Assembly (NCBI GenBank): GCA_049516875.1
Contig: JBEKSS010000002.1
Coordinates: 32,001-96,000 of the forward strand
Origin: Candidatus Bathyarchaeia archaeon
GTDB lineage: Archaea > Thermoproteota > Bathyarchaeia > Bathyarchaeales > Bathycorpusculaceae
Reading direction: 5' to 3'
DNA: 64,000 nt
Shown: one piece after another, positions 24,354-57,066 of the stretch
Numbering within the stretch: the first letter of the stretch is position 1
Layout: each line of letters opens with the position of its first letter
The notes under the pieces: generated by a model
Databases searched by the model: none
What the model saw: only the letters and a program-made list of their open reading frames with translations
Told to the model about the DNA's origin: nothing
Program-made: the position numbers and the translations under genes

Positions 24354-24391
24354 ACCCACAACCAAAAAACAACATCGCACAAACAGCAGAA

Positions 24392-24469: not shown

Positions 24470-24578
24470 AAACCCTTCACCCATTCCTATTTCCAAAACC
24501 ACAAAATAAGCCTATCCCAACACCTTTAAACCCCACACACCCAAAATAGTACACCCCCACCACCACAGAGGCCAAACC

Positions 24579-26771: not shown

Positions 26772-26805
26772 ATAGTAGTGTTCTGCATTGTAACCTTCTG
26801 CTGGT

Positions 26806-26867
26806 ATGTTGGCTTGTGAGCCCTTTTGTTTGAGTGCTCAATCCGTGATTTCTTTGAGACTCAAAAC
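26806..26867 (-). repeat. Double-palindrome repeat, copy 3 (inverted)
   Basis: Reverse complement gttttgagtctcaaagaaatcacggattgagcactcaaacaaaagggctc. Confidence 0.85.
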
Positions 26868-26954: not shown

Positions 26955-27015
26955 ATGTTAGAGTCGGAGGCCTTGCGTTTGAGTACTCGATGCGTGATTT
27001 TTTTGGGTGTCAAAA
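26955..27015 (-). repeat. Double-palindrome repeat, copy 4 (inverted, diverged)
   Basis: gccttgcgtttgagtactcgatgcgtgatttttttgggtgtcaaaa. Confidence 0.75.
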
Positions 27016-27144
27016 GTGGGTTTCGATGTTTGCTCGTGCGTGTTGCATGTTGGGTTTTAGGCTTCTGGCTTTGAGGTTCAATTCGTGGTTTCTTTGGGTG
27101 TTAAAGGCGGGTGGTTTTCTGTTTGTTGGTGTTTTGGGTGTGGG

Positions 27145-28062: not shown

Positions 28063-28434
28063 GGTCCTTGGCTCCGTATTCTAAGCGTATGAACTCATGT
28101 TATAGTTAAGGGTTCTATTTTGTTTTCGGTTCATGTTCGACCATCCTAAGTCTCATGTGACCTTGCTTTTGCCAAGTAGAGTAGCCTTTGCTTGATTGTC
28201 AGGCGGTTTTGTCGCGCCTTGTCGGGAGAAGCTCGTTATTCTCGTGGAGGTTGAGCTGCAACCTATCTTCCGTTTTGATGTATCGGAGGGTTGTTCTTGG
28301 CTACCATGCTTCGGAGCGCGCGCTATCCATCGATCGTTATTGGTCCTTGAAGTCGGAGGAAGATTATTAAGCGCGCTAGATCTTTGAAAACTGGGAAAAA
28401 CTAGGTTATTTGTAAAACGATTCGGGTTTGAAGG

Positions 28435-29305: not shown

Positions 29306-30652
29306 ATGAAATTGAGTAAACTTCAAATCATAGTGTTGTTCTGTGGTGTTACGGTGGTGTTCTTCGGGTTAAGCCCAAAAAGCCTAGCCTTGACTTCCTC
29401 AAACATATTATTCAAAGAGAACTTTGATTCTGGTTCAACTAGCATGTGGATACCCAAACAATCACATGGCACAGGTACAGTCGTGGCTGAAGCTGCTTTA
29501 CATGGAAGTTATGGACTGAAGCTTTCGACGGATGGAACGGTAGCAGCAGAAACCAAAGCATTGGCAAACCTAGGTTCCAGCTATACTGACGTGTACGCAA
29601 GATGTTACATGAAGTTCCTAGGTCTGCCAACGGGATATGATTTCTGGAATATAATCAGCATGCTTCGTCCTGATTGGATCCCGGACGTGGGCATAAGGCT
29701 TTACGGTCCGAGTCGCAGCAGTGCAAATCAAGTGGAGTTCGGGGTAGGATACCTCAAGAATGGTGCTCTTGCCTGGCTCACTTATGGTCCTGTTGGAGCG
29801 AACAGAATGTACTGCATCGAACTTCATCTAAAAGAGGACGTGACAAACGGAGCAGTTGACCTTTACATCGACAACAATCATGTGCTGGGAGACAGCGGCT
29901 TCGGCAATGGCCATTCTATCCAGCAAGTCCAGTATAACCTCTACGTTGGCAACGCTGGTTCTCCACACACGATTTATGTTGACGATATAGTTGTTGCCAA
30001 CACGTACATAGGAGCTATTCCTCCAGCGAGTACTCCGTCAGTAACTTCGCCACCATCAACCAATCAAACCACTCCACCATATGTTAAAACCAATTTGGCT
30101 GCTATTCCTAACGATTGGTATTTGACTTATGGCAATGGCAAACAAATCATCTTCTTAGACTCCACTGTCGTGCGAACATCGGGAAAACCAAGCATCCGCC
30201 TTGAACCTCATACCGCGAATGACATGAATCGTGCCAGAGAAGTCGACGGCATATGGTATCCCATTAAGCCTGGCGATCACATTGTTGCTAAGTGCTGGAT
30301 GAGAGTCTTAACTGGACCATCAACCTATGGTTACCCTTATTGCGGAGCGCGAATCGGAATAGATTTCGACGGTTATGACGGTGACGGCAAATACGTCATT
30401 TTAGATGCAGCCCAATTCTGGAAGGCGTACTACCAGGGAGATTTCTCTCGGAGCTATGTTCGGGATAGCAATGGCGGCGCGTGGCAGCAGAGGACAATAG
30501 ATATTATCGTTCCTGCAACTGTAGGCGACACTCTAAATCGTCCGTGTGTACCTGATACAATGGTTCTGTGGATGCAAGGAGCACCCTGGATTATCAACCC
30601 TACTGCCAGCAATGTATGGTTTGCCGATGCAGAATTATACATTAACCCATGA
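29306..30652 (+). CDS. Secreted protein: lectin-like beta domain, S/T/P linker, conserved C-terminal domain (paralog A)
   Basis: Signal peptide; FKENFDSG...IYVDDIVV; C-terminal domain shared with 46261-47625 and 49208-49954. Confidence 0.78.
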   Translation: MKLSKLQIIVLFCGVTVVFFGLSPKSLALTSSNILFKENFDSGSTSMWIPKQSHGTGTVVAEAALHGSYGLKLSTDGTVAAETKALANLGSSYTDVYARCYMKFLGLPTGYDFWNIISMLRPDWIPDVGIRLYGPSRSSANQVEFGVGYLKNGALAWLTYGPVGANRMYCIELHLKEDVTNGAVDLYIDNNHVLGDSGFGNGHSIQQVQYNLYVGNAGSPHTIYVDDIVVANTYIGAIPPASTPSVTSPPSTNQTTPPYVKTNLAAIPNDWYLTYGNGKQIIFLDSTVVRTSGKPSIRLEPHTANDMNRAREVDGIWYPIKPGDHIVAKCWMRVLTGPSTYGYPYCGARIGIDFDGYDGDGKYVILDAAQFWKAYYQGDFSRSYVRDSNGGAWQQRTIDIIVPATVGDTLNRPCVPDTMVLWMQGAPWIINPTASNVWFADAELYINP

Positions 30653-30883
30653 GTTGCAACTTACAACGTTCACTTAGAGCATGCGCTAGCGTCAATCTGA
30701 AAGAAAAAGAGGATTTGCAGGACGTGAATAAGGCGGGCTGATTCATTACTTTATTTTTTCTTTTGTCTTTTCTGCGGCTTTTTTGGTCTCTTCGACTCCC
30801 TTTTCCCCAGCCCGCGCATTAGATATTAGCGCGCGCCAGTTAGGGGAAAATGTTGTATTCGCGCGCGCGGGGACGGTGTTTCT

Positions 30884-34470: not shown

Positions 34471-34518
34471 AGCCCTTGCTTTTGAGTACTCAATTCGTGT
34501 TTTTTTTGGGCTCAAAAC
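34471..34518 (-). repeat. Double-palindrome repeat, copy 5 (diverged)
   Basis: agcccttgcttttgagtactcaattcgtgt-t run-gggctcaaaac. Confidence 0.7.
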
Positions 34519-34679
34519 GGGTGGTTTGTTGAGGTTTTTGTTGTGCGTGTGTGTAGCGCGCGTGCGTTGTTTGGTGGCTTGGGCTTCTGGTTTTTGTAAT
34601 AAAGGTGTGTTTGATGTTCTGGAGTACATGAATCGGCGGTTCTGATGCGTCCCTGCGAAGTTCTGGTGGCAGGCGTGGG

Positions 34680-41101: not shown

Positions 41102-42316
41102 GTGGGCGAAGTAATGACCGTTCAAAAAAGAAAGAATTCCCAAAAGATATCACCTCTTTGGGTGAGCTTTACAATTTTGGATGTTTTCCTTCATAAAACA
41201 GCTCTTTTAGACATCTTGAGAAAGTTTGCAGAATTCGGACATAAACCTTGTCTCATAGCGGTTCGATCAAGGAATGCGTATCGAAATGAAGATCCACCAG
41301 TGCGCATAATCTCTGTTCCCTTAAGATATGTGCCGCTTGTTTCGCGGGTTATGTTTACTATCATGCTGGTCTTATTTTTACCTCTCTTTATTGTCGTTTC
41401 AAGGCCAGACTTCATCATTTTTGAGCCTGAAATTCATATTCTTGCCTGTTTTCCGGGTCTTTTTGTTTCCAAGTTTAGAAAGGTAAAGGCTGTTTTGGAT
41501 ATTAGAACCGTACCAGTTGAGACTGTGGGATTTCGAGGTTTTCTGCAAAAATTCTGGTTCTCTGTGTCCATTCTTGTAGCTAAGAAATTGTTTGACGGCA
41601 TAACAATTATTACTCCCTCAATGAAGAAAAAAATCTGCAATGACTTCGACTTAAATCCAGACAACGTAGGAGTATGGACATCTGGAGTTTCCGATAGTCT
41701 ATTCAACCCTAAAAATTCCATTCCAGAGAACGCAGAATTGAAAAGAAGGCTGGGATTGACCGGGAAATTTGTTGTTTTCTATCATGGAGTTTTTACTCCT
41801 ACCCGTGGATTGACAGAAACCATTGACGCCATTAAAATATTAATACCCAAATATCCTGACATTGTGTTCTTTCTTCTGGGAGCTGGGCCTTCAGCTTCTA
41901 CGCTGAGCGCCTTGATTCAGAAGGAGGGTCTTCAAGGAAAGGTTATTATCGCCAATCCAGTGGATCACTCGGAAGTTCCGAAGTTTATCGGCATGTGTGA
42001 CGTAGGAATCGTTCCATTGCCTGATCATCCTTATTGGAGGTTTCAGAGCCCACTAAAACTTTTAGAATACTTGGCCATGGAAAAAGTTGTTATTTTGACA
42101 GACATTCCAGCTCATCGGGCCGTAATAGGTGAAGCAAAATGCGGTGTCTATATCTCGTCAGTCAACCAGATGGAAATAGCAAAAGCAATAGAATGTGCTT
42201 ACCTCAACAAGGATTCTCTTAAGGAATGGGGAAAAATCGGTCGGGAAATCGTCAAAAGAGAATATACGTGGGAAAAAGTGGCAGAGAATCTGGAAAATTA
42301 TCTTCTATCGATTTAA
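41102..42316 (+). CDS. GT4 glycosyltransferase
   Basis: YHGVFTPTRG, SPLKLLEYLAM, YTWEKVAE. Confidence 0.9.
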   Translation: MGEVMTVQKRKNSQKISPLWVSFTILDVFLHKTALLDILRKFAEFGHKPCLIAVRSRNAYRNEDPPVRIISVPLRYVPLVSRVMFTIMLVLFLPLFIVVSRPDFIIFEPEIHILACFPGLFVSKFRKVKAVLDIRTVPVETVGFRGFLQKFWFSVSILVAKKLFDGITIITPSMKKKICNDFDLNPDNVGVWTSGVSDSLFNPKNSIPENAELKRRLGLTGKFVVFYHGVFTPTRGLTETIDAIKILIPKYPDIVFFLLGAGPSASTLSALIQKEGLQGKVIIANPVDHSEVPKFIGMCDVGIVPLPDHPYWRFQSPLKLLEYLAMEKVVILTDIPAHRAVIGEAKCGVYISSVNQMEIAKAIECAYLNKDSLKEWGKIGREIVKREYTWEKVAENLENYLLSI

Positions 42317-42507
42317 GAACTGCGCGCCCTAATAGAAGCAATTTCTGCCACAAAGGCTTACGATCGCGCGCGCTCAGAATCATGAAACAAATGGCCTCAA
42401 CGAAAGTAAGGCGAGCTACTGCGCGCGCTAGGATAGCCTCAAAGGTGGCAGTATATATGTGATTATATCATCTTGGGTCATTCCGTCAATCGATTAGTGT
42501 TCTTAGG

Positions 42508-43698
42508 GTGGTATATTTGACTGGAGATGTTAGGAAAACTAGAAAACCTAGAATTGCGGTCATTGGTTCGCGTGGGATTCCAGCAACTTACGGCGGGTTT
42601 GAGACCATAGCTCAAGAGCTAAGTTCGGGATTAGTCAAGAAAGGATTTGAGGTATATGTAAGCTGCGAATCAAAAGGGTTCAAGATCAAGCCTTACGGGA
42701 ATTATCAGGGTGTAAGGCTTGTTTATTTCCCGGTAGTCAACAGTTTGCGAAGTCTTTCAGAAGTGTTCGTATATGATTCATTGTCGGTTTTGTGGACAAC
42801 GCTACGGGTCGATATCATATACATGTTAGGCTATTCCAGTGTTCTAACTTTAATTTTCCCAAAGCTTTTGGGGAGGGTAGTGCTGGTTAATGTTGATGGC
42901 TTGGAGGCTGCAAGACCAAAATTTAATCCATTGCTACGGTTCTTTTATCGCTCTTTTGAGAAATTCGTGACGAAGATAGCCGGGCATATAATTGTAGATT
43001 CCAAGACTATGGGTTTTTATTATCGGCGAAACTATGGAGTGGCACCTATTTATATCCCAAATGGTGGTGGATGCACACTCACTATTAAACCTCTTGATTC
43101 TACGATATTGAAAGCTTATGGCCTTGAAAAAAGGAAGTATTATTTGTTTATTGCAAGACTCACGCCTGATAATAGTATTGACTTGATAATTGATGCATTC
43201 AAGAGGACTAATTCACGAAAGAAATTAATCGTTGTTGGCCCCCTTGTAAAAAACAGTTTCGTCAAAAGATTATTGGCAAACAGAGACGAAAGGGTAGTTT
43301 TTCTTGGAGGCATATATGAGCCCAGACTCCAAAGAACGCTACGTTACAACTGCTACGCTTATATACATGGTCACCAAATGGGCGGTACAAGTGTCTCGTT
43401 GGTTGAAGCAATGAGTTGCAGCAATACTATTCTGGCTTTGGATACTTACAGCAATAGGGAAGTTGCCGAAACTTCAGCAATATACTTCAAAAAGGATGCT
43501 GAAGATTTAAAAGAGAAAATTGAAGCTTTGGAAGAAACCCAGTCCTGCGTTCAAGTTAATGAGACTGCGTATCTTCTTTACCAAAAGAAGTATTCATTGG
43601 ACAACACGGTGGGTAAATTTATTGATGTAATTGAAAATATCGCAGAAGCAAAGAGTCTGGCTCACAAGTATTGTCCATTGGCTTCCAACTTTCGCTAA
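42508..43698 (+). CDS. GT4 glycosyltransferase, DUF1972 (rhamnosyltransferase-like)
   Basis: IGSRGIPATYGGFET, NVDGLE, HGHQMGGTSVSLVEAM. Confidence 0.9.
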   Translation: MVYLTGDVRKTRKPRIAVIGSRGIPATYGGFETIAQELSSGLVKKGFEVYVSCESKGFKIKPYGNYQGVRLVYFPVVNSLRSLSEVFVYDSLSVLWTTLRVDIIYMLGYSSVLTLIFPKLLGRVVLVNVDGLEAARPKFNPLLRFFYRSFEKFVTKIAGHIIVDSKTMGFYYRRNYGVAPIYIPNGGGCTLTIKPLDSTILKAYGLEKRKYYLFIARLTPDNSIDLIIDAFKRTNSRKKLIVVGPLVKNSFVKRLLANRDERVVFLGGIYEPRLQRTLRYNCYAYIHGHQMGGTSVSLVEAMSCSNTILALDTYSNREVAETSAIYFKKDAEDLKEKIEALEETQSCVQVNETAYLLYQKKYSLDNTVGKFIDVIENIAEAKSLAHKYCPLASNFR

Positions 43699-43751
43699 AG
43701 AAGTTAATACTGTGTTTATGGAAGATGATGTAACCTAGGCGGAGACAAAAA

Positions 43752-44627
43752 ATGAAGATACTTGTAACAGGAGCAGCAGGAATGCTCGGCAGTGCTCTAT
43801 GTCCCACGCTAACGCGAAGAGGACACACTGTGTTCTCGACGGATTTAGCCCCAGATGAAGGAATTGAATACTTGGACGTTAGAGATTATAAGCAAATAGA
43901 AACGTCCGTCAGGAAGGTTAAGCCCGATATGGTTATGCATCTAGCAGCTGAGACAGATGTGGATAAGTGTGAACTTGAACCTGATCATGCATTTCTGACA
44001 AATACTATAGGCACTCAGAATGTAGCTCTAGTGTGTCAAAAACGGGGCATTGTGATGGTTTACATTAGTACTATAGGTGTCTTTTATGGGGATAAGCCTG
44101 AACCCTACACGGAGTTTGATAACCCCAATCCGATTAATGTTTATGGTCGAAGTAAGCTTGAAGGCGAGAAGATTGTTCAGAGTCTATTGGAAAGGTACTA
44201 CATAGTTCGAGCGGGTTGGATGGTTGGTGGCGGTCCTGAAAAGGATAAGAAATTTATCGGTAAAATTATGAAACGAATGAATGAAACAACTGTACTGAAG
44301 GCTGTCAATGATAAAATAGGAAGCCCCACATATACTGTTGACTTTTCCAGCTGCTTGGCCGATCTTGTTGAAACCGGATATTATGGCCTTTATCACTGTA
44401 CTAACAAAGGTTATGGTTCAAGATTTGATGTCGCCCAAAAAATTGTCGATTTCTTGGGAAGATCTGGTGTGACCGTTGAGCCTGTTGGTTCTGCGCATTT
44501 TCCTTTGCCTGCAGCACGGGCAAGATCAGAAATGTCCAGAAACTATAAGCTTGAACTGCTCGGCAAGGATACGATGAGGAATTGGGAAGACGCTCTCAAA
44601 GAATACATAAATTCGTGTTGGAAATAA
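43752..44627 (+). CDS. rfbD: Second dTDP-4-dehydrorhamnose reductase-family protein
   Basis: GAAGMLG, TDVDKCE, YGRSK, GSPTYT. Confidence 0.85.
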   Translation: MKILVTGAAGMLGSALCPTLTRRGHTVFSTDLAPDEGIEYLDVRDYKQIETSVRKVKPDMVMHLAAETDVDKCELEPDHAFLTNTIGTQNVALVCQKRGIVMVYISTIGVFYGDKPEPYTEFDNPNPINVYGRSKLEGEKIVQSLLERYYIVRAGWMVGGGPEKDKKFIGKIMKRMNETTVLKAVNDKIGSPTYTVDFSSCLADLVETGYYGLYHCTNKGYGSRFDVAQKIVDFLGRSGVTVEPVGSAHFPLPAARARSEMSRNYKLELLGKDTMRNWEDALKEYINSCWK

Positions 44628-44779
44628 GCTTGCGTTCAATTGAAGTTCTGCTGAGTTTTCCTTTTTCCATCTTTTCATTTCTTTCCTTCTTCCAGCTTAA
44701 GCTTAGATGTAAGTCCTAGTTCGACCATCAAAAAGAGTTACCTACGCTAAATCAAGCGGCACTTATCGGGACTTACGCC

Positions 44780-46024
44780 TTGTTCCCTATCATAATCCTT
44801 GATGATTTTCAAAAAAGCACCAAGATGTATGTTATGGAAGTAGTACTATTAAATCATGACTATCCTCCGTTTATTTTCGGCGGAGTTGGGACTTTTGTGC
44901 ATGAACTGGCAAAGGGTCTTTCGCGCAATGGTGTAAAGGTTCATGTGATAACTGGATATAATGAAGACATTAGTTCAATGGGCAGTTTTGGGTTCCAGCG
45001 AAGTACAGAAGATGATATAGACGTTCTGAGATTCTCCTATCCGAATATTCCTCCTAGACACACGGTTTTTCAAGTGTGGAACATAAAGAAAATACTGAAA
45101 GTCATCCGAGATCTTGATGTAGACGTCATCCATGGTCAATGCAGCGCCACTTATCCAGCACTACCTCTTCTAAGAAGAGAGGCACCAGTCCTTGTCACTT
45201 TTCATACGAGTCCGATGATGCAGAAAATAGCGAGTACGCAATCGATTTTTCGTGGAGGAAGCTTTAGGGATTTCTGGACAAATTTGGTCGGTTATCACGC
45301 ATATCATTTTGCATTTCTCAAAGAGCTTCAAGGCTCAGATGCAGCAGTTACTGTTTCAAGAGCTCTAAAATCTGAGATTTTAGCAGAAATGGGCGAAAAA
45401 TATGCGGACAAAATACAGTACATACACAATGGTGTTGACCTTCAATCTCTTGACAAAGAATATGAAGAGGCTGAAACAGGGGCCACAGAATCTGAAAAAA
45501 CAATACTCTTTGCGGGTCGTCTATTCTGGCTAAAAGGCGCGTTGAGCATTATTGAAATGGCTTACTTACTGCAAAAGAACAAGACAAAATTCAAGATAAT
45601 TGTCCACGGAACCGGCCCGCTTTTCAATAAAATGCGGGAATACATAAGTTCACTAGGGTTGAGAAATATAGACCTTAAGGGCTTTGCCACAAAGCCACAA
45701 CTCATGAATAGCATGAAACAATGCGCATTTGTCGCAATTCCAAGCATGTATGAAGCGTGTCCAATGATACTTCTTGAGAGTATGTGTTTGGGGAAGATTC
45801 CTCTAATGCTAAAACTCCCGTTCTCCTCCGAACTTACTGAGGACGGAAAATATGGAATACTTGGCGACGGAGTAAAAAGTCTGACAGATCGGCTAATAAC
45901 ACTGGAGAATACTCATTCCCTGAGCCAATTAAGTAACAAAATTCGAATATTTGCTAGGAATCTCTACAACATGGACAAGGTAACCCAAAAATATATCGCG
46001 ATGTATCGCGATATATTTTCATAA
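44780..46024 (+). CDS. GT4 glycosyltransferase
   Basis: DYPPFIFGGVG, IHNGVD, FAGRL, PSMYEACPMILLESM; true start probably near 44830. Confidence 0.9.
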   Translation: MFPIIILDDFQKSTKMYVMEVVLLNHDYPPFIFGGVGTFVHELAKGLSRNGVKVHVITGYNEDISSMGSFGFQRSTEDDIDVLRFSYPNIPPRHTVFQVWNIKKILKVIRDLDVDVIHGQCSATYPALPLLRREAPVLVTFHTSPMMQKIASTQSIFRGGSFRDFWTNLVGYHAYHFAFLKELQGSDAAVTVSRALKSEILAEMGEKYADKIQYIHNGVDLQSLDKEYEEAETGATESEKTILFAGRLFWLKGALSIIEMAYLLQKNKTKFKIIVHGTGPLFNKMREYISSLGLRNIDLKGFATKPQLMNSMKQCAFVAIPSMYEACPMILLESMCLGKIPLMLKLPFSSELTEDGKYGILGDGVKSLTDRLITLENTHSLSQLSNKIRIFARNLYNMDKVTQKYIAMYRDIFS

Positions 46025-46260
46025 TGGGTTCAAGTGAACAATTGGCGCGCACCGGCTTATTGCTAAATCGATCGATCTTTGTGTCAACCAGTTTGTCCAG
46101 AATTCAAGAAACGGAATTGAAACCATTCTTGACCATTTTTTACCCTTTTCGGAACAGCCATGCGCCCCATGGGCATGGTTAAATATTCTCTCCCAGTTAA
46201 CAATGGGCATGTTTAAATATTCTTCTCGATTTCTTATGGATTGGGAGAAGGTTAGGCTAT

Positions 46261-47625
46261 ATGCGGATTCACACAGCGTGCTTGTCCCGTGTTTTTCTAG
46301 TTCTCTTGCTTCTTTCTCTGCTTGAGGTAGGGTTCAAGGTTTCTGTGGCTTTTGCAGCCGAAGTAGGTTCTGGTCCACGTCTTCCTGACCTTAACGGTGA
46401 TGGCGTTGTTGATATGCGTGATATAGCTATAGCTATACGCGCTTGTGGTTCCCAGGCGGGGGATCCTAATTGGAACAGTGCAGCTGACCTTAATTATGAT
46501 GGCGTGGTGAATATGGACGATGTTGCCGCCATAGTAAAAGATTTTGCGAAGAAGTGCAGAACGTATGACTTTAACGATATGTCGGACTGGATTGTGAGTG
46601 GTGGAAACTGGAGTGTACAGAATGGTACTCTTGAGGGATCCAGCAGCTATGACGGTTTGATTTACGTTGGGGACGCTGCGTGGAAAGATTCCGCGTTCAC
46701 TGCGAGGCTGAAGTTTGCAGGGGACAGCGAGTATACGGAGGCCGCTGTTGCGTTTTTAGCGCGCGCGCGTGACCCGAACAATTTCTATTATGCGGGACTC
46801 GGCTGCTGGGGTCATAGAGTCTCGATTTCAACTAGGGTAGGTGGTGTCTGGCGGGAGTTGGCGTTCAGCGGTGACGTAGCAGACGTTGAGAAAGATGTTT
46901 GGTACGTTTTAGCGGTAAAAGTTTCTGGTGGTGCGATTATGCTGTACTTGGACGGCTCCTTGGAATTGTCGGTGAATGATTCGACTTTTGTATCAGGCTC
47001 TGTTGGGATAAGCATCTGGGATTCACATGTGATCGTCGACTATGTGACTGCCATCGGGACAATCGATCGATCGAATGCAAATTTGGCCGTTATTCCGGAC
47101 GATTGGTATTATACGCAATATCCAAACATCCATTTAGACTATGACGTTGTACGTACGCCAGGAGATCCAAGCATCCGCCTTGAACCTCATACCGCGAATG
47201 ACACGAATAGCGCCCGAGAGGTTGATGGCAAATGGTATGACATTAAGCCTGGCGATCACGTTGTTGCTAAATGCTGGATGAGAGTCTTAACAGGGCCTTC
47301 AACCTATGGTTATCCCTATTGCGGAGCGCGAATCGGAATAGACTTCTATGGAGGTTCACCATACCGACTTTTAGACGCAGCCCAATTCTGGAGTGACTAT
47401 TATGGTGGTGATTTCAGTAAAGGATATGTGCAGGATTCTAATGGAGGTGCTTGGCAACAGAGGATGATCGACATTGTCGTTCCTGCAACTGTAGGCGACT
47501 CTGCTGGCAATCCTCAAGTGCCCACTCAATTTGTTTTGTGGCTGCAAGGTGCGCCTTGGATTGTAGATTCAACCTCCACTTCAGTTTGGTTCGCCGACGC
47601 TGAACTGTACATTAATCCAACATGA
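46261..47625 (+). CDS. Secreted protein: dockerin, lectin/DUF1080-like domain, conserved C-terminal domain (paralog B)
   Basis: DLNGDGVVDMRD and DLNYDGVVNMDD dockerin; GNWSVQNG...GSVGI beta-sandwich; shared C-terminal domain. Confidence 0.8.
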   Translation: MRIHTACLSRVFLVLLLLSLLEVGFKVSVAFAAEVGSGPRLPDLNGDGVVDMRDIAIAIRACGSQAGDPNWNSAADLNYDGVVNMDDVAAIVKDFAKKCRTYDFNDMSDWIVSGGNWSVQNGTLEGSSSYDGLIYVGDAAWKDSAFTARLKFAGDSEYTEAAVAFLARARDPNNFYYAGLGCWGHRVSISTRVGGVWRELAFSGDVADVEKDVWYVLAVKVSGGAIMLYLDGSLELSVNDSTFVSGSVGISIWDSHVIVDYVTAIGTIDRSNANLAVIPDDWYYTQYPNIHLDYDVVRTPGDPSIRLEPHTANDTNSAREVDGKWYDIKPGDHVVAKCWMRVLTGPSTYGYPYCGARIGIDFYGGSPYRLLDAAQFWSDYYGGDFSKGYVQDSNGGAWQQRMIDIVVPATVGDSAGNPQVPTQFVLWLQGAPWIVDSTSTSVWFADAELYINPT

Positions 47626-47772
47626 GGTGTAGGTATAAGTAACCGAAAAGTTCATACGTAGACGGTTTCGTTTCATCCTGTCTTTGGCTATCCAAATGGT
47701 GGTCTAAGTCAACCTTTCGCTGGTCCATGTATTAGCGCGCGCGCTTAGCGAATAACGATCGATCTTCATGGA

Positions 47773-48564
47773 TTGGTGGAGAATAATATGGATGACGATA
47801 CTTACTTACCTACAAGACGCGAATTAGAAGATTATTATGAGGTAAAAGAGGTTGATCGAAGACTTTCGTATTTCCTTGTCACCTCTTCTTCGATAACGTG
47901 TGACGTTGGCGGAAGTATAGGAATTGATGCTTTGCCCCTGGCAAGGCTCGGGTCTCTGTGCATTTGCGTAGACATTAACAAGGGTCATGTCAAAGCAGGG
48001 AAAACTCTGTCCAAGAAAAAAGTTTTCATGAACAAGCTGGAGTTCGTCGTAGCTAGCGCGACTCATTTACCCTTCAAAGATTCTTCACTTGATCTGGTTA
48101 CTTGTTTTTCTGTTCTGGATCATCTCCCAAGTAAAGAGGATGCCTGTTTGGCAGTAAATGAGTTTTCAAGAGTGGTTAGGGATTTCAAGTACGTCGTTGT
48201 CACAGTTCCGAATAGACTTTTTCTCATAGGAACTGTATTCATGAGATTGAAACAGCTTCTCGACTCTGATGCTTACTTTGAGCAAAGATTCACTCCGCAA
48301 GAAATGCAGAAAATGATGGTTATGTCGGGGCTTACGCCACTAGCTCTGGATTCAAAATACCCAACCAGCGCGCGCGGGGTTTTGAAAGAAAGCAATTTGC
48401 CAAGGATCATGAGTAAAATTCCACCGAAAATATTCGATCCTGTGCTTCTGATAGCAGAGAGTGTGTCCCGAAAACTGGAGAAAAGAATTTGGTTAAGGCT
48501 ATTTGGCGCAAGGTTTGGATACCTGTCTCAAAAAAGAGTTGATAACTATGATCGATCGATTTAA
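47773..48564 (+). CDS. Class I SAM-dependent methyltransferase
   Basis: CDVGGSIG, ATHLPFKDSSLDLV, SVLDHL, VTVPN. Confidence 0.88.
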   Translation: MVENNMDDDTYLPTRRELEDYYEVKEVDRRLSYFLVTSSSITCDVGGSIGIDALPLARLGSLCICVDINKGHVKAGKTLSKKKVFMNKLEFVVASATHLPFKDSSLDLVTCFSVLDHLPSKEDACLAVNEFSRVVRDFKYVVVTVPNRLFLIGTVFMRLKQLLDSDAYFEQRFTPQEMQKMMVMSGLTPLALDSKYPTSARGVLKESNLPRIMSKIPPKIFDPVLLIAESVSRKLEKRIWLRLFGARFGYLSQKRVDNYDRSI

Positions 48565-49015
48565 CCATTTTGGCACGCAGTTGGAATTCCCACCCTGGGG
48601 ATCCCAGCGCGCGCAGCCGACCTTAATTGTGATGACGTGGTGAATGTTTGCGATGCTGTCATCCTACTCAGAGATCGATCGGTCAGACGAAGGAGCAGAT
48701 TCCAAGAGAAAAGGATAAATAACTACCTCACATAGGCGCGCTATCGCTCGCTCTTTTGAGAAATTGATAAAGAAAATAGCTGATTATATAATTGTAGATT
48801 CAAAGACTATGGATTTCTATTATCGGCGAGACTATTGGGTGGCACCAATCTATATCCCAAATGGTAGCGCGATCGATCGATCGCATACAGTCTGGAAAAT
48901 TATCTTCTATCGATTAGCGAACTGAGGAAGAAATAGAAGCAGTTCTTATCACAAGGGGTTACGACTTCGTTTTCCAGAATCATCAAACAAATGATCTTCA
49001 ATGAAAGCAAGGCGC
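48558..49015 (+). pseudogene. Mosaic of three gene remnants (dockerin; GT4 DUF1972 internal piece; GT4 3' end plus flank)
   Basis: 48558-48676 resembles 46420-46545; 48749-48865 resembles 42949-43065; 48891-49015 resembles 42289-42415. Confidence 0.85.
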
Positions 49016-49207
49016 GTTAGAAAAATGAAATTGTTGAGTCTTGTAACGTGGTTATCGAGATTGAACTGATGCAAAGTCCATTATTTCAAATAGGAGTCGA
49101 TACTGTGTTTATGTTGAACACTTCGACAGAATCATTTATATCAAGAGTTCCGATATCTGAAACAGAAAGAACTTCAGAAAATTGCATTGCGTGCGGATGT
49201 GTAACTA

Positions 49208-49954
49208 GTGGGAAAGAAAGAATGTCTTGCGTTTCTTTTTTGCCTGATACTATGTTATTCTCTTTTCCAAAATATCGTGAGGGCACAGAGTTCATCACAT
49301 TTCAATATATCCTCTCAAGGAAGCATCAATTACACGCCTTCAAATGTAAACTTGGCTGTGATTCCTTATGACCCGAGCTTGCCATATGACAACGGTTGGG
49401 GTGACTATAAAGGGAACATAGTCTGGATGAGTGGAAAACCACAGCTTTGTTTCCTAGACAACAATATTGTTCGAACGGCTGGCAAACCAAGTATACGCCT
49501 TGAGCCAAATTTCAACGGTTGTCCGAATTCTGCACGAGAATGCGATGGCGCATGGTTTTCCATTAAGCCAGGAGACCACATTGTTGCTAAATGCTGGATG
49601 AGAGTCTTAACTGGACCATCAACCTATGGTTATCCTTACTGCGGAGCGCGAATCGGAATAGATTTCGACGGTTATGACGGTGACGGCAAATACGTCATTT
49701 TAGATGCAGCCCAATTCTGGAGTGACTATTATGGTGGTGATTTCAGTAAAGGCTACGTGCAGGATTCTAATGGCGGCGCTTGGCAACAGAGGATAATAGA
49801 CATTGTCGTTCCTGCAACTGTAGGCGACACTCTAAATCGTCCGTGTGTACCTGATACGATGGTTCTGTGGGTACAAGGAGCACCCTGGATTATCAACCCT
49901 ACTGCCAGCAATGTATGGTTTGCTGACGCTGAGTTGTATATTAATCCTGTTTAA
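49208..49954 (+). CDS. Secreted protein consisting only of the conserved C-terminal domain (paralog C)
   Basis: Signal peptide, then NLAVIP...WFADAELYINP domain. Confidence 0.8.
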   Translation: MGKKECLAFLFCLILCYSLFQNIVRAQSSSHFNISSQGSINYTPSNVNLAVIPYDPSLPYDNGWGDYKGNIVWMSGKPQLCFLDNNIVRTAGKPSIRLEPNFNGCPNSARECDGAWFSIKPGDHIVAKCWMRVLTGPSTYGYPYCGARIGIDFDGYDGDGKYVILDAAQFWSDYYGGDFSKGYVQDSNGGAWQQRIIDIVVPATVGDTLNRPCVPDTMVLWVQGAPWIINPTASNVWFADAELYINPV

Positions 49955-51681: not shown

Positions 51682-52022
51682 TTGCAAGTTTTGCCACAAT
51701 GATTCATGGGCCGCAAATGTATTACAACTTCGTTAGACCACACCAGGTCTTAGATGAAAAACCCCGCGATTGTGGGCTGCTTTCCCCGTCCCAGCAATCC
51801 TCTTTTTGTCACCAAGTGATTACATAATAGTTACAAAAATGACGTTTTGCTCGTTTTGTTCAAGTTAATTAACGAATTTTATACAGATCGATCGAAGTAA
51901 GATGTGCCCAATTGAAGTTCTGCTAGTCTCCTTTTAAGTGTATATGTCGGGAGAAGATTCCTGTAATAATGAGAAGTGTGAAGAGCTGGATACAATTCAT
52001 TTCAGATTGAGTTCTAAATGAG

Positions 52023-53051
52023 GTGTTGAAGTTGTCTCGATTTGATGTTTCCGTTATTGTGGTCAACTACAATTGCCATAATACGCTGAAAGATTGCATC
52101 AAAAGCATTCTCCTTTCCGAAGCAGTTGGAGAATTACTATTAGTCGATAATGCTTCTACTGACAAAAGTATGGATCTGATAGAGGAATACATTGCTGATG
52201 TACGTTTAAAGATTATCCGCTTAAACCGAAATATTGGTTTAGCCAAGGCAAGAAATCTGGCAGCTGCTAAAACAAGCAGTGATTACCTTGCCTTCACTGA
52301 TGCCGATACCATAGTTGACCCGGAATGGTTGCAGGAGCCATGTTTCCTTCTTGAGACGCACAAAGAGATCGGGGCAGTTCAGTGCGAGATCTTGAGCTGG
52401 AAGCATTTACACAAGATTACATTTGGGGAAGAGAGGTCGAGGGGGATCGACTGGAAGACTATGCCCGAAGAAATGCTCAATTCTTCTCGTCGAATCCTAT
52501 TTCCAAACGGTGTGGCTTTCATAATTAGGCGAGATGTATGGGATCTTGTGAAAGGTTTTGACGCTGCCCTTTTTGTAGGAAATGATGATGTAGATTTGGG
52601 AATCAGGCTTTGGCTGAGTGGTTATGAGGTAATATGTAGCTCTGAAGGAATAGTCTACCATGATGGTGGACACCTTAGACGTCGCAAAGATATTGCCCCG
52701 ATTTTTAAGTTCCACGGATACAAAAACATGCTCATTATTTGGACTAAGGATTTGCAGGCAGGGACGCTGGTGAAACAAGTGCTACCATTTTCATTACTTT
52801 ATCCGTTGGTGACTTTTTTGGATGCAGGGGTTTGGGGTGTCACGGGGCTGATTTCTTTCTTAGAAAGCTTACCCTCAATCCTAGTCAGGCGACATGACGT
52901 TCAACAGCTTAGAAAAATATCGGACAATAAGATAATACCGATGATGCATCGCGCGGGGACGTTGCCCATACAGCTCTTTACGAATGATTTTCGAATATTC
53001 TATAAGTATATTCTTCGAAGAATTAAAGCTATGGTAGCGCGCGCTAGATAG
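52023..53051 (+). CDS. GT2 glycosyltransferase
   Basis: VIVVNYN, VDNASTD, FTDADT, GFD...DDVDLGIR. Confidence 0.9.
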   Translation: MLKLSRFDVSVIVVNYNCHNTLKDCIKSILLSEAVGELLLVDNASTDKSMDLIEEYIADVRLKIIRLNRNIGLAKARNLAAAKTSSDYLAFTDADTIVDPEWLQEPCFLLETHKEIGAVQCEILSWKHLHKITFGEERSRGIDWKTMPEEMLNSSRRILFPNGVAFIIRRDVWDLVKGFDAALFVGNDDVDLGIRLWLSGYEVICSSEGIVYHDGGHLRRRKDIAPIFKFHGYKNMLIIWTKDLQAGTLVKQVLPFSLLYPLVTFLDAGVWGVTGLISFLESLPSILVRRHDVQQLRKISDNKIIPMMHRAGTLPIQLFTNDFRIFYKYILRRIKAMVARAR

Positions 53052-53082: not shown

Positions 53083-54504
53083 ATGATTCTCATTGTTGCT
53101 ACAATCTCTTTTGTATTTTCATTCATTGTCCTATTCTTGATCATGAGGTACCTAGCAAAAGGCAAATTGTGTACGGGGGATACTTTTTTCCATTTGCTCA
53201 TAATCGAGTCCATAAGAAAGCACCGATGGAAATATCCTTCATCGCTAGAGAATGTCGTTTTTGACTTGGATATTAAACCCTACAATTACCTAGCATATCC
53301 CCCCCTTCTTCACTATATCGTCGCGCTTCTTCCTAGAAGATTCCACATCGCGGCGGCTAAGATGCTCAATCTCGTCATACTTTCATTTGTGAGTAGTCTG
53401 GCTTCTATTTTTGTGTATACCATCACGTCAAGTTTTCCTCTTGCAGTAGTTTCAGCTTTTATCACGACTTTCAACCTGTCAACCTTTGAGAACACTGTCA
53501 TGTTTACACCCAGACCCCTTGGACTGCTCTTTTACTCCCTTCTTGTGTACGTTACGCTTCTTTTTCCGTCAGGTCTCCTTTCAACTCTCGCGATCACGAT
53601 TCTAGTCATGTTGGTAAACCTCTCTCACAAATTCGCAACTCAAGCGATGATCTTTGGTCTTCTGCCCTATGTCTTCATTTTTAGTAGGTTCGACTTATTT
53701 CTCTCAATCGCTCTAGGGTTCTTATTATCTATACTGGTGAGCAAAGGGTTCTATCTCAAAATTCTAAGAGAGCACTACAACTGGCTCTACTTCTATATTG
53801 GCGTTTTTCGTGGCGCGCGCGCGCGTGGCATACCTAACAGATCCATCCATAAGTTGGGTGCAGTGCTGAGCAGAAATTTATGGTATCTATTGATCGTAGT
53901 ATTAATGGCGGTTTATTCCATCTCAAAAAATGGAAGTCTATTCAGCAACGATTTGACTGCAAAAGCATCTTTTTGGGCTTTCATGCCTGTCATTACAGCC
54001 CTAATTATGTCCACTCCTGCGTTGTCATTTCTGGGAGAAGGATACAGGTATGTTCAATACGGTGTAGTTCCAGTTGGAATTGTGAGTTCACTTCTATTCG
54101 AAAGTTCGAATCTTTACATCTGGCTCGCTTTTTTTGCGTGTTTCTTTATGACTTTTCTGGAATTGTACATATATAAGAGACGTCTTCACGAGTCAAGACT
54201 TCTAGTCAATCCTAGCGATACTTCGGCGTACAGCTGTTTGGGAAACCACGAATCAGGCAACGTGCTCGTTTTTCCTCGTATTCGAACTCTAGAAGTCAAC
54301 TATTTAGCGAAGTTGCAGGTTGTCCATCTTGTGCGGCCTCGGCCAGGGACCGATCAGGAAACAGCGTACAAGTATGGGGTCAAACATGTCTTGATATTCA
54401 AGGGAGAGGACAAAGCATTGGCAAAGCTGAAGAATGCCTTCGATATGAGCAGAATTCTGACTTCTCCCTTTTTTGAATTGTACGAAGTGGTACCAAGAAG
54501 CTAG
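53083..54504 (+). CDS. Polytopic membrane protein (GT-C-like)
   Basis: GDTFFHL and YPPLLH loop motifs, many TM segments. Confidence 0.65.
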   Translation: MILIVATISFVFSFIVLFLIMRYLAKGKLCTGDTFFHLLIIESIRKHRWKYPSSLENVVFDLDIKPYNYLAYPPLLHYIVALLPRRFHIAAAKMLNLVILSFVSSLASIFVYTITSSFPLAVVSAFITTFNLSTFENTVMFTPRPLGLLFYSLLVYVTLLFPSGLLSTLAITILVMLVNLSHKFATQAMIFGLLPYVFIFSRFDLFLSIALGFLLSILVSKGFYLKILREHYNWLYFYIGVFRGARARGIPNRSIHKLGAVLSRNLWYLLIVVLMAVYSISKNGSLFSNDLTAKASFWAFMPVITALIMSTPALSFLGEGYRYVQYGVVPVGIVSSLLFESSNLYIWLAFFACFFMTFLELYIYKRRLHESRLLVNPSDTSAYSCLGNHESGNVLVFPRIRTLEVNYLAKLQVVHLVRPRPGTDQETAYKYGVKHVLIFKGEDKALAKLKNAFDMSRILTSPFFELYEVVPRS

Positions 54505-54766
54505 TCTAGCATTGAATGAAACACAGTGTACGCGCGCTGATGATGCGTAATGAACATCGAGTTGAAGTTACTGAACCGCGAAAAGCATGCAATACCAGGT
54601 GGAACACCAAAATACTTGAAACGAAAGATAGTGGTCTTGGTCATCGCTGTCTAAAGACGCACCTATTTGATAGATTTTTCAAGAAATATCAGGCTGTTTG
54701 GAGGCTCGGTTTCTGTTGACAAAAAGTACAAAAAAGCCCTTATAACGAAAAAATCGTTGAACAATC

Positions 54767-55804: not shown

Positions 55805-55943
55805 AATGGAAGTACCATTCTCGCTGAAGCTTTGAGCACCTGATCGATCGCGCTCTAACTATTGGCAAACCACAAGGAAAAATAGGAGCCGCCTCATCTA
55901 ACTACATCACAATAAGACGGAATACGAAAGGAAGGTAAAGGGT

Positions 55944-56993: not shown

Positions 56994-57066
56994 ATAGCGC
57001 AGGCCAAGCGTTCCATTGTAGAAAATCTATTCTCTGAGGGCGCGCAAACTGGCGGAGCATTCTAAT

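Follow-up and report, generated by a model that had tools for sequence, protein, structure and literature searches.

What are the short runs of CGCGCG and GATCGATC that have recently replaced, or entered, unique sequence in a variable island of surface-sugar genes? We addressed this question in the window, i.e., the whole 64-kb stretch of DNA that was analysed, whose positions are used throughout. An earlier interpretation made from the letters alone (hereafter the sequence-only reading) had proposed that short gaps or resected ends were refilled with palindromic DNA. The tracts of both kinds, (CG)n and (GATC)n, form one phenomenon together with fillers that combine CG and GATC, pure insertions that keep the reading frame (+9 and +15 nt) and a single 6-nt duplication of a flank; the sequence-only reading had noticed the CG tracts alone.

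Enrichment of (CG)n and (GATC)n tracts

With minimum lengths of 6 nt for (CG)n and 8 nt for (GATC)n, the window contains 30 and 11 tracts, respectively; they are 6-19 nt long and their consensus is the repeat unit alone. Runs of 8 nt or more with alternating G and C occurred 14 times, compared to 0.78 expected under an order-1 and 1.43 under an order-3 Markov model; the maxima in 40 simulations each were 4 and 5, respectively. When repeat units were compared across the window, (CG)n was again found 14 times (0.63 expected), and (GATC)n of at least 9 nt was found 10 times against 0.57 expected in 30 order-2 simulations. The remaining units stayed close to chance: (AT)n was absent (~1.4 expected), self-complementary tetranucleotides other than the GATC class amounted to 2 when pooled (~1.9 expected, five classes at chance), non-self-complementary tetranucleotides to 52 (48.2 expected), and AC, AG and AT dinucleotides as well as 3-nt and 4-nt units were near expectation. 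The enrichment is limited to CG and GATC units; every other unit is unenriched, self-complementary or not. A generic palindrome-making process fails to account for this (CG)n/(GATC)n-only enrichment. As controls, a locus from a Bathyarchaeia metagenome-assembled genome (G+C 45.5%, similar to the window) and a Clostridia locus lacked alternating G/C runs of 6 nt or longer throughout their 21,197 and 19,057 nt, respectively.

Replacement of unique sequence in duplicated segments

A blastn comparison of the window with itself aligned 48883-49014 (copy B) with 42281-42413 (copy A) at 75.4% identity over 134 nt (E = 6e-16), and a local alignment gave 104 identical positions out of 139. The paralogy that the sequence-only reading had assumed for these segments is therefore significant, and all strings that it quoted for them and for the dockerin pair below are in place. 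Copy A reads gaactg (42317-42322), cgcgccct (42323-42330) and then aatagaagca, and further on tacga (42359-42363), tcgcgcgcgct (42364-42374) and then cagaatcat. The matching stretches of copy B are gaactg (48919-48924) followed by aggaaga (48925-48931), and tacga (48960-48964) followed by cttcgttttc (48965-48974). At patch 1, about 7-9 nt were lost and 8 nt gained. Mismatches between the copies accounted for 13 of the 19 columns in the two patches vs 23 of 121 elsewhere (Fisher P = 2.8e-5, with patch limits set by the tract coordinates and hence independent of the alignment), and identity without the patches was 81%. This clustering bears out the earlier proposal that tracts replace patches of unique sequence of similar length. 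The similarity stops at 42413/49014, 7 nt short of the third tract, as had been noticed before.

A second pair points in the same direction. A fragment of a dockerin region matched its other copy with 82.6% identity over 46 nt (blastn, E = 1.3e-5), and a local alignment extended the match to 74 identical positions out of 106. The fragment reads ggggatcc-cagcgcgc-gcagc (48597-48617) where the other copy has ggggatcc-taattggaacagt-gcagc (46459-46484), i.e., 8 nt stand where 13 nt were lost. In each of the three replacement events (patch 1, patch 2 and the dockerin patch), 7-13 nt of unique sequence are gone. Together with the in-frame insertions described below, these alignments show that tracts replace or add sequence.

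Table 1 Positions of tracts, duplicated segments and mosaic fragments in the window
Feature	Position	Strand	Basis or context
Copy A: last 36 nt of glycosyltransferase ORF 41102-42316 plus ~97 nt downstream	42281-42413	+	blastn vs 48883-49014
Copy B = mosaic fragment F3; no tract at either patch; ends GGCGCG (49011-49016)	48883-49014	+	blastn, alignment
Patch 1, GCGCGCCCT: 8 nt in place of ancestral AGGAAGA(A)	42322-42330	.	alignment, homologue tails, tree
Patch 2, TCGCGCGCGCT: 11 nt in place of ancestral 10-nt pyrimidine-rich YTTCGTTYTC	42364-42374	.	alignment, protein tails
Third tract, GCGCGCGC	42421-42428	.	7 nt past end of A/B homology
GATCGATCGAT, coding last residues DRSI* of methyltransferase ORF 47773-48564	48550-48560	.	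left edge of mosaic; common only to 92% homologue P0229
Fragment F1: piece of dockerin region of ORF 46261-47625	48575-48672	+	blastn, alignment
Internal patch of F1, CAGCGCGC, replacing 13 nt	48605-48612	.	alignment
GATCGATCG at right end of F1, between TCAGA and TCAGA	48673-48681	.	flanks read from sequence
GCGCGC, 6 nt before left end of F2	48736-48741	.	source 42918-42947 without tract
Fragment F2: from inside glycosyltransferase ORF 42508-43698 (42948-43065)	48748-48865	+	85.6% over 118 nt, E = 3e-32
Composite filler AGCGCG-ATCGATCGATCG-C at F2/F3 joint	48866-48884	.	absent at matching edge of either source
ATCGATCGATCGA at domain-fusion point (unrelated N-terminal part/shared C-terminal domain)	47062-47074	.	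ORF 46261-47625
GCGCGCGCG, in-frame +9 nt, SARG vs K in closest homologue	48368-48376	.	methyltransferase ORF 47773-48564 vs 92% homologue P0229
CGTGGC-GCGCGCGCG-CGTGGC, in-frame +15 nt	53809-53829	.	membrane-protein ORF 53083-54504
GCGCGCGC, ATCGATCG, GCGCGC	28316-28376	.	divergent gap 28063-28434
GCGCGCGC + CGCGCGCGCG	30829-30869	.	convergent gap 30653-30883
GCGCGC, then ATCGATCGATC	46045-46077	.	gap after glycosyltransferase ORF 44780-46024
TTAGCG-CGCGCGC-TTAGCG, 11 nt later CGATCGATC	47732-47764	.	gap between ORFs 46261-47625 and 47773-48564
GCGCGCGC, coding C-terminal ARAR*	53037-53044	.	GT2 ORF 52023-53051
(TCGA)4.75, longest tract	58488-58506	.	5' coding part of aldo/keto reductase ORF 58451-59512
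Other intergenic tracts	51886-51895, 54531-54537, 55842-55850, 57040-57045, 60529-60540, 61820-61828, 63831-63838	.	

Polarity of the replacements

Homologous glycosyltransferases of other lineages read through the stop codon and thereby translate the same downstream DNA. A tail at patch 1 like that of copy B (x-E/K-L/P-R/K/G-x-K/N) was present in 18 of the 120 homologues listed. Six tails extend as far as patch 2, and four of them have the ancestral, pyrimidine-rich version there; the frames of copy B at this patch were matched by the tails of P0005, P0006, P0038 (LRFRSPES) and P0061 (YDFALQNHETN). Moreover, a tree of 33 of the 120 listed homologues placed the window's gene among lineages with ancestral tails. 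The outgroup proteins agree with the tract-free copy, which answers the earlier call for an outgroup and indicates that the tracts are derived rather than ancestral. The outgroup evidence consists of protein translations throughout: a search for orthologous DNA with the glycosyltransferase as query gave two distant loci only (53% and 39% identity), with an unconserved downstream region and zero tracts, so that the polarisation is based on protein tails. For the dockerin patch, the sole basis of polarity is that an intact gene is compared with a fragment.

Residues that tract-like codons would encode were found at variable sites in relatives as well, namely SARG at patch 1 in P0006, a three-residue RAR insertion in P0122, and ASAHAC at patch 2 in P0057. 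P0006 and P0057 thus suggest that both patch sites were hit anew in other lineages. Searching the 120 glycosyltransferase homologues listed for tripeptides of the tract type told little, since naturally conserved motifs prevailed.

Considering that the tracts are tandem repeats of 2- and 4-nt units, they could be ordinary microsatellites, grown by slippage from chance CG or GATC seeds, with the differences nearby being point mutations and deletions of separate origin. Copy B has GGCGCG at the place matching the third tract, and one CG lies within ancestral patch 2. However, patch 1, patch 2, the dockerin patch and the site of the +15-nt insertion ancestrally lacked even a two-unit repeat, unique flank sequence was lost at the same place, and only two of all possible units are enriched. 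Short-tandem-repeat enrichment is further reported to be absent from archaeal genomes on average (PMC12699852). Ordinary slippage is thus a very unlikely source of the tracts, and the argument of the sequence-only reading that the other copy offers no usable repeat seed stands. Restriction cutting followed by fill-in requires a GATC or GCGC seed and was rejected as the sole origin, because the ancestral patches have no such seed.

Tracts at the seams of a pseudogene mosaic

The region 48550-49016 is a pseudogene mosaic of three fragments (F1-F3) that derive from 46437-46525, 42948-43065 and 42281-42413 and stand in non-native order. For most fragment ends, the nearest tract lies within 6 nt (0-6 nt). 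The looser ends are the left end of F1, ~14 nt from a tract, and the right end of F3, which adjoins only a 5-nt GCGCG. Within the filler between F2 and F3, positions 48869-48884 form a perfect 16-nt palindrome. The mosaic ends are few and some tracts are common to two of them, so these observations are non-independent. A collinear extension of F2 through the tract at 48736, hinted at by tblastx, was rejected by eye because the 15 added residues hardly match.

A further seam lies inside ORF 46261-47625, where homology to paralogues begins at 47080 and a GATC tract is located 6 nt before. The linkers of three paralogues are too divergent in alignment to define a replacement at 47062, and GTACGTACG at 47149 is accounted for by two synonymous substitutions. 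By position, the tracts coincide with rearrangement seams. A repeat element at 34471-34550 bounded by two GCGCGCG tracts was unsupported, as the homology stops 25-35 nt inside the tracts.

The same coincidence would be expected if the tracts were the cause of the rearrangements, with breaks and joins arising at pre-existing (CG)n (Z-DNA-prone) and (GATC)n palindromes through fragility and microhomology. In other systems, CG repeats that adopt the Z-DNA form cause breaks and deletions; in the window, several tracts are clustered in the same gaps, and the same sites were apparently hit repeatedly in other lineages. We nevertheless regard this order of events as rather unlikely. The source sequences of F2 and F3 (42918-42947, 43066-43100 and 42251-42280), which are present-day copies and not the true parents, contain no tracts where the fragments end. 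Patches 1 and 2 and the +9 and +15 sites were tract-free in their ancestral state as well, so the first tract would need a separate origin.

In-frame insertions in coding DNA

Two tracts were detected as insertions within open reading frames (Table 1). The +15-nt insertion in ORF 53083-54504 equals a 9-nt tract plus a 6-nt flank duplication. The encoded ARARG segment was found in 0 of 44 homologues of this ORF, and the three closest homologues are exactly 5 residues shorter.

The window appears to come from an uncultured archaeon, probably of the Bathyarchaeia (one named homologue, of 48% identity, points that way), and its proteins were seen on metagenome-type contigs only, which raises the concern of an assembly or sequencing artefact. 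Several observations make this extremely improbable. Tract-encoded residues recur, since P0228 (with SARG and the DRSI* end) is a stored protein on 6 contigs and P0121 (with GARARG) on 2, and the DRSI* end is common to a 92% relative from another source. The in-frame lengths in coding DNA suggest selection on real sequence. In addition, assembler k-mers are longer than tracts of 6-19 nt.

Flanks of the tracts

Direct repeats of at least 6 nt flanked 2 of the 41 tracts, compared to 0.21 expected (P = 0.02); these are CGTGGC (53809-53829) and TTAGCG (47732-47750). Flank copies also stand on both sides of the tract at 48605-48617 and, on visual inspection, at 48668-48691. In 36/41 tracts, flank repeats of 3 nt or more were absent. 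With a duplication of at least 6 nt at 2/41 tracts only, the structure of the ends is non-uniform, and a constant-length target-site duplication was rejected as a rule, the two tracts being exceptions among 41.

The two duplications would suit tracts that are tiny mobile palindromic elements, comparable to mitochondrial GC clusters and palindromic microsatellites, or that are footprints left when a transposon whose inverted ends are tipped with CG or GATC was excised. Under this unlikely alternative, the 15 nt at 53813 would be the 9-nt tract and its 6-nt duplication. The tracts are optional between close relatives, footprints of inverted-repeat elements should be palindromic by construction, and fungal mitochondrial palindromic repeats with adjoining indels and SNPs are regarded as mobile and recombinogenic (PMC7218506). 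However, besides the general lack of flank repeats, the three replacement events lose flank sequence rather than duplicate it, and the tracts are only 6-19 nt long with a consensus limited to the unit. Comparison of the window with itself did not reveal a complete element that has ends of this kind. The 48 ORFs scanned in the 64-kb window included no transposase, repair enzyme, polymerase, reverse transcriptase or restriction system, nor any end-joining machinery such as Ku/LigD, PolX or PrimPol.

The palindromy ends at the tract edge. An extension of at least 1 bp per side was observed for 10/41 tracts vs 10.4 in the null model, and the summed extension was 22 vs 37. The adjacent flank is hence not part of the palindrome, and an origin by hairpin opening, as for P nucleotides, was rejected.

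Distribution across genes and gaps

In the glycan-gene island (42317-64000), 12 of 15 intergenic gaps bear tracts (3,244 nt of gap), and between positions 1 and 28100 it is 3 of 14 gaps (6,137 nt of gap); the gap 28063-28434, with three tracts, lies across the boundary and was excluded from the count. Many tracts are located 6-110 nt downstream of a stop codon.

Such positions would also suit selected functional motifs, for instance binding sites, Z-DNA or cruciform regulators, transcript-end structures, or phase-variation (contingency) repeats. Repeated hits at the same sites in relatives, if real, would agree with selection. Furthermore, a one-unit change in the (TCGA)4.75 tract in the 5' coding part of ORF 58451-59512 would cause a frameshift, and phase variation of Campylobacter glycan genes is reportedly driven by simple repeats (PMC8437040). 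However, the tracts are unconserved in homologues of 85-92% identity, vary in length and flanks, and occur in pseudogene debris and protein loops too, which makes a selected function quite unlikely. Six regions with tracts folded as RNA no better than their shuffled sequences did (z -0.14 to +1.62) and Rfam gave 0 matches in 42200-49300, which argues against a structured RNA or REP-like element. As for contingency repeats, most tracts other than that at 58488-58506 lie after stop codons or in debris, and most (8-10 nt) are too short for efficient slippage.

Break repair as a reading of the tracts

The question remained how filler made of only two units could come to lie at replaced patches, seams and insertions. 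We see about an even chance that DNA-break repair and illegitimate recombination left the (CG)n and (GATC)n tracts behind as scars; the tracts look like the signature of an undescribed way to patch broken DNA. The above results do not support four other origins, namely seed slippage, palindromes from hairpin opening, RNA structure and a mobile element that makes duplications.

In the proposed sequence of events, a break would be the initiating lesion and would be rejoined with the loss of a few unique nucleotides or, occasionally, with fill-in of staggered ends. A short CG and/or GATC filler, synthesised or captured at the break and presumably made by an enzyme or from a template, would be placed between the ends ahead of sealing. 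Since CG and GATC units are self-complementary, filler tails on both ends could pair with each other. The scars would persist where they are tolerated, i.e., in intergenic gaps and pseudogene debris and, as multiples of 3 nt only, in protein loops, linkers and C-termini; they would consequently accumulate in the rapidly reshuffled surface-glycan gene island. Of the refilling first proposed by the sequence-only reading, the healing of gaps or resected ends fits tracts at, or up to ~15 nt from, rearranged ends whose sources are tract-free, while self-templating from a hairpin of the flank found no support (10/41 vs 10.4).

Besides the lack of a repair enzyme among the 48 ORFs and the non-uniform ends, other observations sit uneasily with break-repair scars. 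The exclusivity of CG and GATC is not predicted by ordinary end joining, and repeated hits at the patch sites (P0006, P0057) should be rare under random breaks, so that a hot spot or selection would be needed. A bolder version, which we hold to be doubtful, is that the lineage possesses an activity devoted to healing breaks, which extends broken 3' ends by repeats of one fixed self-complementary unit, CG or GATC. Such an activity might copy an internal template, as telomerase and repeat-synthesising defence reverse transcriptases do, or might make the unit over and over in concert with a nuclease specific for GATC or CGCG, after which any two healed ends could anneal and be sealed. If this were true, every rearrangement would be tagged, and all cassette shuffling, domain fusions and indels of the genome could be read from the tracts.

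Comparison with known systems

To our knowledge, archaeal DNA end joining is poorly known, and nothing is known of it for uncultured groups such as Bathyarchaeia. Known end-joining filler DNA is random or copied from nearby. Filler from NHEJ, MMEJ and synthesis-dependent MMEJ resembles the tracts in that short extra sequence lies at non-contiguous joins or small deletions, with a few flanking nucleotides lost or duplicated, but differs in that the tracts are always (CG)n and/or (GATC)n and that for most of them a local template was not detected. MMEJ in archaea has reportedly been demonstrated by experiment (PMC12281630). A sequence-specific filler would indicate an undescribed repair or recombination activity. 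A literature search that covered few subscription journals found no description of CG/GATC tracts at junctions in archaea or bacteria.

Template-switch mutation reportedly copies nearby inverted sequence (Ripley; Lovett; Loytynoja & Goldman). The resulting quasi-palindrome clusters, like the patches, replace several adjacent bases in one step with the length roughly kept; they are, however, complementary to the flank, whereas the palindromy in the window ends at the tract edge. P nucleotides and the hairpin-opening footprints of transposons are palindromic additions at repaired ends too, but P nucleotides mirror the adjacent flank and the tracts do not.

Mitochondrial GC clusters form families of roughly 30-60 bp with conserved structure. 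The tracts are pure repeats of 6-19 nt without such a sequence family, and membership of this class was rejected. Fungal mitochondrial palindromes (yeast GC clusters, Fusarium (A)n-TA-(T)n; PMC7218506) are, like the tracts, short, intergenic, optional among close relatives and adjoined by indels and SNPs; in contrast, they are organellar, longer and belong to structured families, while those of the window are 2- and 4-nt repeats of 6-19 nt on an archaeal chromosome-like contig.

A further likeness is to palindromic tandem-repeat synthesis in vitro. Thermophilic polymerases are said to make such repeats by hairpin elongation or with the help of a restriction enzyme (Ogata & Miura 2000; Liang et al. 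2004), and we know of this synthesis only from the test tube, not from cells or chromosomal junctions. Both cases share tandem short self-complementary units; if a restriction enzyme takes part in the reaction, its site lies within the unit, and GATC and CGCG/GCGC are typical 4-bp sites. The difference is that the test-tube reaction yields long polymers, whereas the tracts are short and lie at chromosomal junctions, and that the ORFs scanned in the window revealed no enzyme specific for GATC or CGCG. If the break-repair reading is true, the tracts would be a natural counterpart to this reaction. It would account for the one-step rewriting of unique patches, protein loops and C-termini in the surface-glycan island, and the tracts would directly mark recombination seams, gene-cassette borders, domain fusions and recent indels in metagenome-assembled genomes.

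Repeat classes enriched in the window

The enriched repeat classes in the window are CG and GATC, and no others. Alternating G/C runs of at least 8 nt occurred 14 times against 0.78 or 1.43 expected (0.63 in another calculation), and GATC-class runs of at least 9 nt ten times against 0.57 (at least 10 nt: 7 vs 0.13). By comparison, (AT)n was absent (~1.4 expected), AC and AG runs were found 3 and 2 times (2.77 and 3.5 expected), the remaining self-complementary tetranucleotide classes amounted to 2 when pooled (~1.9 expected), and non-self-complementary tetranucleotides to 52 (48.2 expected). Among 8-mers, GCGCGCGC was counted 18 times (0.49 expected) and GATCGATC 14 times (0.94 expected), every copy of the latter lying past 28 kb. 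Alternating G/C runs of at least 6 nt numbered 30 per 64,000 nt in the window, compared with 0 in 21,197 nt of a control locus from a Bathyarchaeia MAG (45.5% G+C) and 0 in 19,057 nt from a Clostridia MAG. Archaea on average have no short-tandem-repeat enrichment according to a survey of 117,861 genomes (PMC12699852), so that the ~20-fold tract excess in the window is unusual.

Runs of both classes clustered in gaps and often adjoined or lay within 20 nt of each other (table), which their shared clustering may suffice to produce. Tract-bearing intergenic gaps made up 12 of 15 in 42317-64000 (3,244 nt) but 3 of 14 in 1-28100 (6,137 nt); gap 28063-28434, which carries three tracts, straddles the region boundary and was left out of this count.

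The window (46% G+C) looks archaeal by gene content. A weak placement makes Bathyarchaeia the probable taxon: the one archaeal genome matched is a Bathyarchaeia MAG (53% identity), a 48% homologue bears the name 'Candidatus Bathyarchaeota archaeon', and most Atlas neighbours belong to Thermoproteota. The window encodes pyruvate:ferredoxin oxidoreductase subunits, an anaerobic ribonucleotide reductase with an N-terminal archaeal HTH, and a HerA-like ATPase, and from ~28 kb to its end a long series of glycosyltransferases, sugar-nucleotide enzymes, methyltransferases and dockerin or beta-helix surface proteins. The reading frame of the HerA-like ATPase (DUF87) shares 29 nt with an ORF of 630 residues without Pfam match, and together the two genes might form a module for repair or defence. 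Around nrdD, strand composition is extreme (GC skew -0.38, AT skew +0.45), with long, overlapping spurious ORFs on both strands. Five copies of a ~60-nt intergenic repeat adjoin pyrB, nrdD and rmlA. At its core, a palindrome around GAGTACTC precedes TTTGAG..CTCAAAA; the repeat could have a regulatory role or be a small repetitive element. The palindromic hexamers AGCGCT, TGATCA, GAGCTC, CCCGGG, GGGCCC and CCGCGG reach 0.14-0.26 of order-1 expectation in the whole window and GATC 0.72, possibly through restriction avoidance.

Coordinates of tracts, mosaic fragments and other repeats
Feature	Position or source	Detail
Copy A	42281-42413	last 36 nt of glycosyltransferase ORF 41102-42316 and ~97 nt downstream
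Patch 1	42322-42330	CG tract in copy A
Patch 2	42364-42374	CG tract in copy A
Third tract	42421-42428
Adjoining or nearby CG and GATC runs	42361-42373, 48866-48884, 55842-55854, 28316/28329, 46045/46067, 47735/47756
Fragment F1	source 46437-46525	dockerin piece
Fragment F2	source 42948-43065	internal piece of glycosyltransferase 42508-43698; 85.6% over 118 nt
Fragment F3	48883-49014	copy B
F1 left	~14 nt ahead of F1	GATCGATCGAT
F1 right end		GATCGATCG
F2 left	6 nt ahead of F2	GCGCGC
F2/F3 junction	exactly between fragments	AGCGCG-ATCGATCGATCG-C
F3 right end		GGCGCG
HerA-like ATPase and 630-residue ORF	9414-13152
nrdD gene, extreme composition	24001-26000
~60-nt intergenic repeat	21389-21450(-), 24291-24356(-), 26803-26867(+), 26968-27043(+), 34471-34550(+)
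Exact 25-nt direct repeat, intergenic	19067-19091, 21119-21143	2 kb separation
Tandem ~70-135-nt units	62482-63159	several, 80-92% identical, in NosD/beta-helix protein ORF 62120-63787
Inverted repeat, 32 nt	45988-46019	near-perfect (94%), 3' end of glycosyltransferase ORF 44780-46024; ends 25 nt ahead of CG tract at 46045
(TCGA)4.75	58488-58506	in ORF 58451-59512
Direct repeat, 60-nt offset	58592-58768	82% over 117 nt, aldo/keto reductase ORF 58451-59512

Replacement patches and their polarity

The sequence-only reading held that palindromic tracts replace patches of copy A relative to its tract-free paralogue, copy B. The palindromic-tract observation is real and significant. All quoted strings are present at their positions, and the pairwise alignment that the reading called for gave 75.4% identity over 134 nt (E = 6e-16, window-vs-itself search), or 104/139 identical positions in a local alignment. 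Mismatches pile up in the two patches (13 of 19 columns inside vs 23 of 121 outside; Fisher P = 2.8e-5), without which identity is 81%. Similarity, said to end shortly before the third tract, ends 7 nt ahead of it, and the second pair reported, between dockerin sequences at 48597-48617 and 46459-46484, is likewise real (74/106 identical).

A genome scan for outgroups matched two loci, both distant, and polarity was therefore judged from proteins; the evidence base is one 64-kb window and the protein translations of relatives. More than 900 glycosyltransferase homologues were found, and some lineages lack the stop codon, so that the predicted protein continues into the downstream DNA. At patch 1, copy B reads S-E-L-R-K-K-stop and copy A E-L-R-A-L; a D-E-L-R-K-K-type tail ends 18 of 120 homologues among the matches listed. 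Six homologue tails reach patch 2. L-R-F-R-S-P-E-S (P0005, P0006, P0038) and, in a different frame, Y-D-F-A-L-Q-N-H-E-T-N (P0061) match the corresponding copy B frames across the patch; P0057 reads L-R-A-S-A-H-A-C-S, and the P0067 tail is shorter and ambiguous. Agreement of copy A with the homologue tails stops at the patch 2 tract and returns beyond it in a shifted frame.

In a tree of 33 of the 120 listed homologues (the closest and those with informative tails, tails cut off beforehand), the window's glycosyltransferase grouped with P0008 (DELRRK) and P0010, next with P0005 (ancestral tail) and then P0006, with 81-86% support at near nodes; ancestral-type tails occurred on either side of the midpoint root. 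Because the outgroup tails match tract-free copy B, rather than showing the tracts to be ancestral, and given the tree placement, both CG patches of copy A are derived.

Tracts inside coding sequence

ORF 53083-54504 reads V-F-R-G-A-R-A-R-G-I-P-N-R-S; the A-R-A-R-G segment is absent from all 44 homologues compared, the three closest (83%, 77%, 66%) being shorter by exactly five residues. The DNA at this +15 site is CGTGGC-GCGCGCGCG-CGTGGC, i.e., a 9-nt tract plus a 6-nt flank duplication. In methyltransferase ORF 47773-48564, Y-P-T-S-A-R-G-V-L-K-E stands against Y-P-T-K-V-L-K-E in the 92% homologue P0229, a three-residue difference that equals the 9-nt tract 48368-48376 plus one presumed substitution. 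Both sites are further polarised events. Tracts also encode ORF ends, namely ...V-A-R-A-R-stop at 53037 and ...Y-D-R-S-I-stop at 48550, the latter common to P0229 alone among homologues.

Residues of the tract-encoded kind also occur at variable sites of relatives and may likewise stem from tracts: S-A-R-G at patch 1 in P0006, which the tree shows to have arisen separately from the event in the window, A-S-A-H-A-C at patch 2 in P0057, and an R-A-R insertion (+3 residues) in P0122. Against an artefact, tract-encoded residues reappear in proteins from 2-6 contigs and in the 92% relative.

The (TCGA)4.75 run lies just upstream of the aldo/keto reductase's conserved N-terminus; gain or loss of one unit would change the reading frame, making it a candidate on/off switch.

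Mosaic and fusion seams

Three gene fragments, out of their native order, make up the mosaic at 48550-49016, and all fragment ends have a tract or short CG run close by (table). No tract was found at any of the points checked in present-day source sequences that match fragment ends. ORF 46261-47625 carries a GATC-class tract of 13 nt, 6 nt ahead of where homology to paralogues 29306-30652 and 49208-49954 starts, a point that is a domain-fusion seam. The three proteins have in common a highly conserved C-terminal domain of ~170 residues without Pfam match (...NLAVIP...ELYINP); their N-terminal parts are unrelated, one with a dockerin.

Origin of the tracts

As an origin, growth by slippage from seeds lacks support, although slippage may alter tract length afterwards. 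A seed of two units is missing from the ancestral sequence at both copy A patches, at the dockerin patch and at the +15 site, in keeping with the argument of the sequence-only reading, and three events lost 7-13 nt of unique sequence. As to a mobile element with target duplication, flank repeats of at least 6 nt were found at 2 of the 41 tracts (minimum length 6 nt for CG runs and 8 nt for GATC runs; 0.21 expected, P = 0.02), but 36 of 41 have no flank repeat, and duplication is not a general feature. RNA folds of six regions were no better than shuffles, and an Rfam search of 42200-49300 gave no match.

There is perhaps an even chance that the tracts are scars left where breaks were repaired and DNA recombined illegitimately, with a filler of (CG)n/(GATC)n put in. 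Replacement patches would then reflect resection followed by filler, pure insertions the addition of filler, and the flank duplication the filling-in of a staggered end, while the mosaic and domain-fusion seams would be joins bearing filler. Tract concentration in the glycan island would follow from its reshuffling, and in-frame tract lengths in coding DNA would also be covered. Refilling of breaks, as proposed earlier, is the best available reading; its "self-templated" form is not supported, as palindromy stops at the tract edge. An origin of the P-nucleotide type, by opening of a hairpin formed from the flank, was rejected, with palindromy past the tract in 10/41 vs 10.4 by chance and a summed extension of 22 vs 37, i.e., no excess.

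Break repair with filler does not explain the exclusive use of CG and GATC, nor what seem to be events at both patch sites in other lineages. If two ends carried self-complementary tails, these could pair with one another, which may favour such units. Ancestrally, patch 1 is polypurine AGGAAGAAA and patch 2 pyrimidine-rich TTTCGTTCTC; speculatively, both could be fragile. The unit specificity suggests an enzyme or template with a sequence preference, a putative GATC- and CGCG/GCGC-recognising nuclease coupled to a polymerase, or a repeat-synthesising polymerase or reverse transcriptase. Test-tube reactions with a nuclease coupled to a polymerase were reportedly described by Liang et al. in 2004 and Ogata & Miura in 2000. 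Repeat-synthesising defence enzymes are mentioned in PMC13174585. No candidate gene for filler synthesis was found within the 64-kb window.

Comparison with known systems

The dominant limit on these findings is their base in one 64-kb window and relatives' protein translations. We found no description of CG/GATC tracts at junctions in prokaryotes in a literature search that mostly covered journals outside subscription. Among known systems, filler DNA at end-joining junctions comes nearest, and MMEJ is active in archaea (PMC12281630). Fungal mitochondria contain palindromic repeats that are present in some relatives and absent from others, with indels alongside (PMC7218506).
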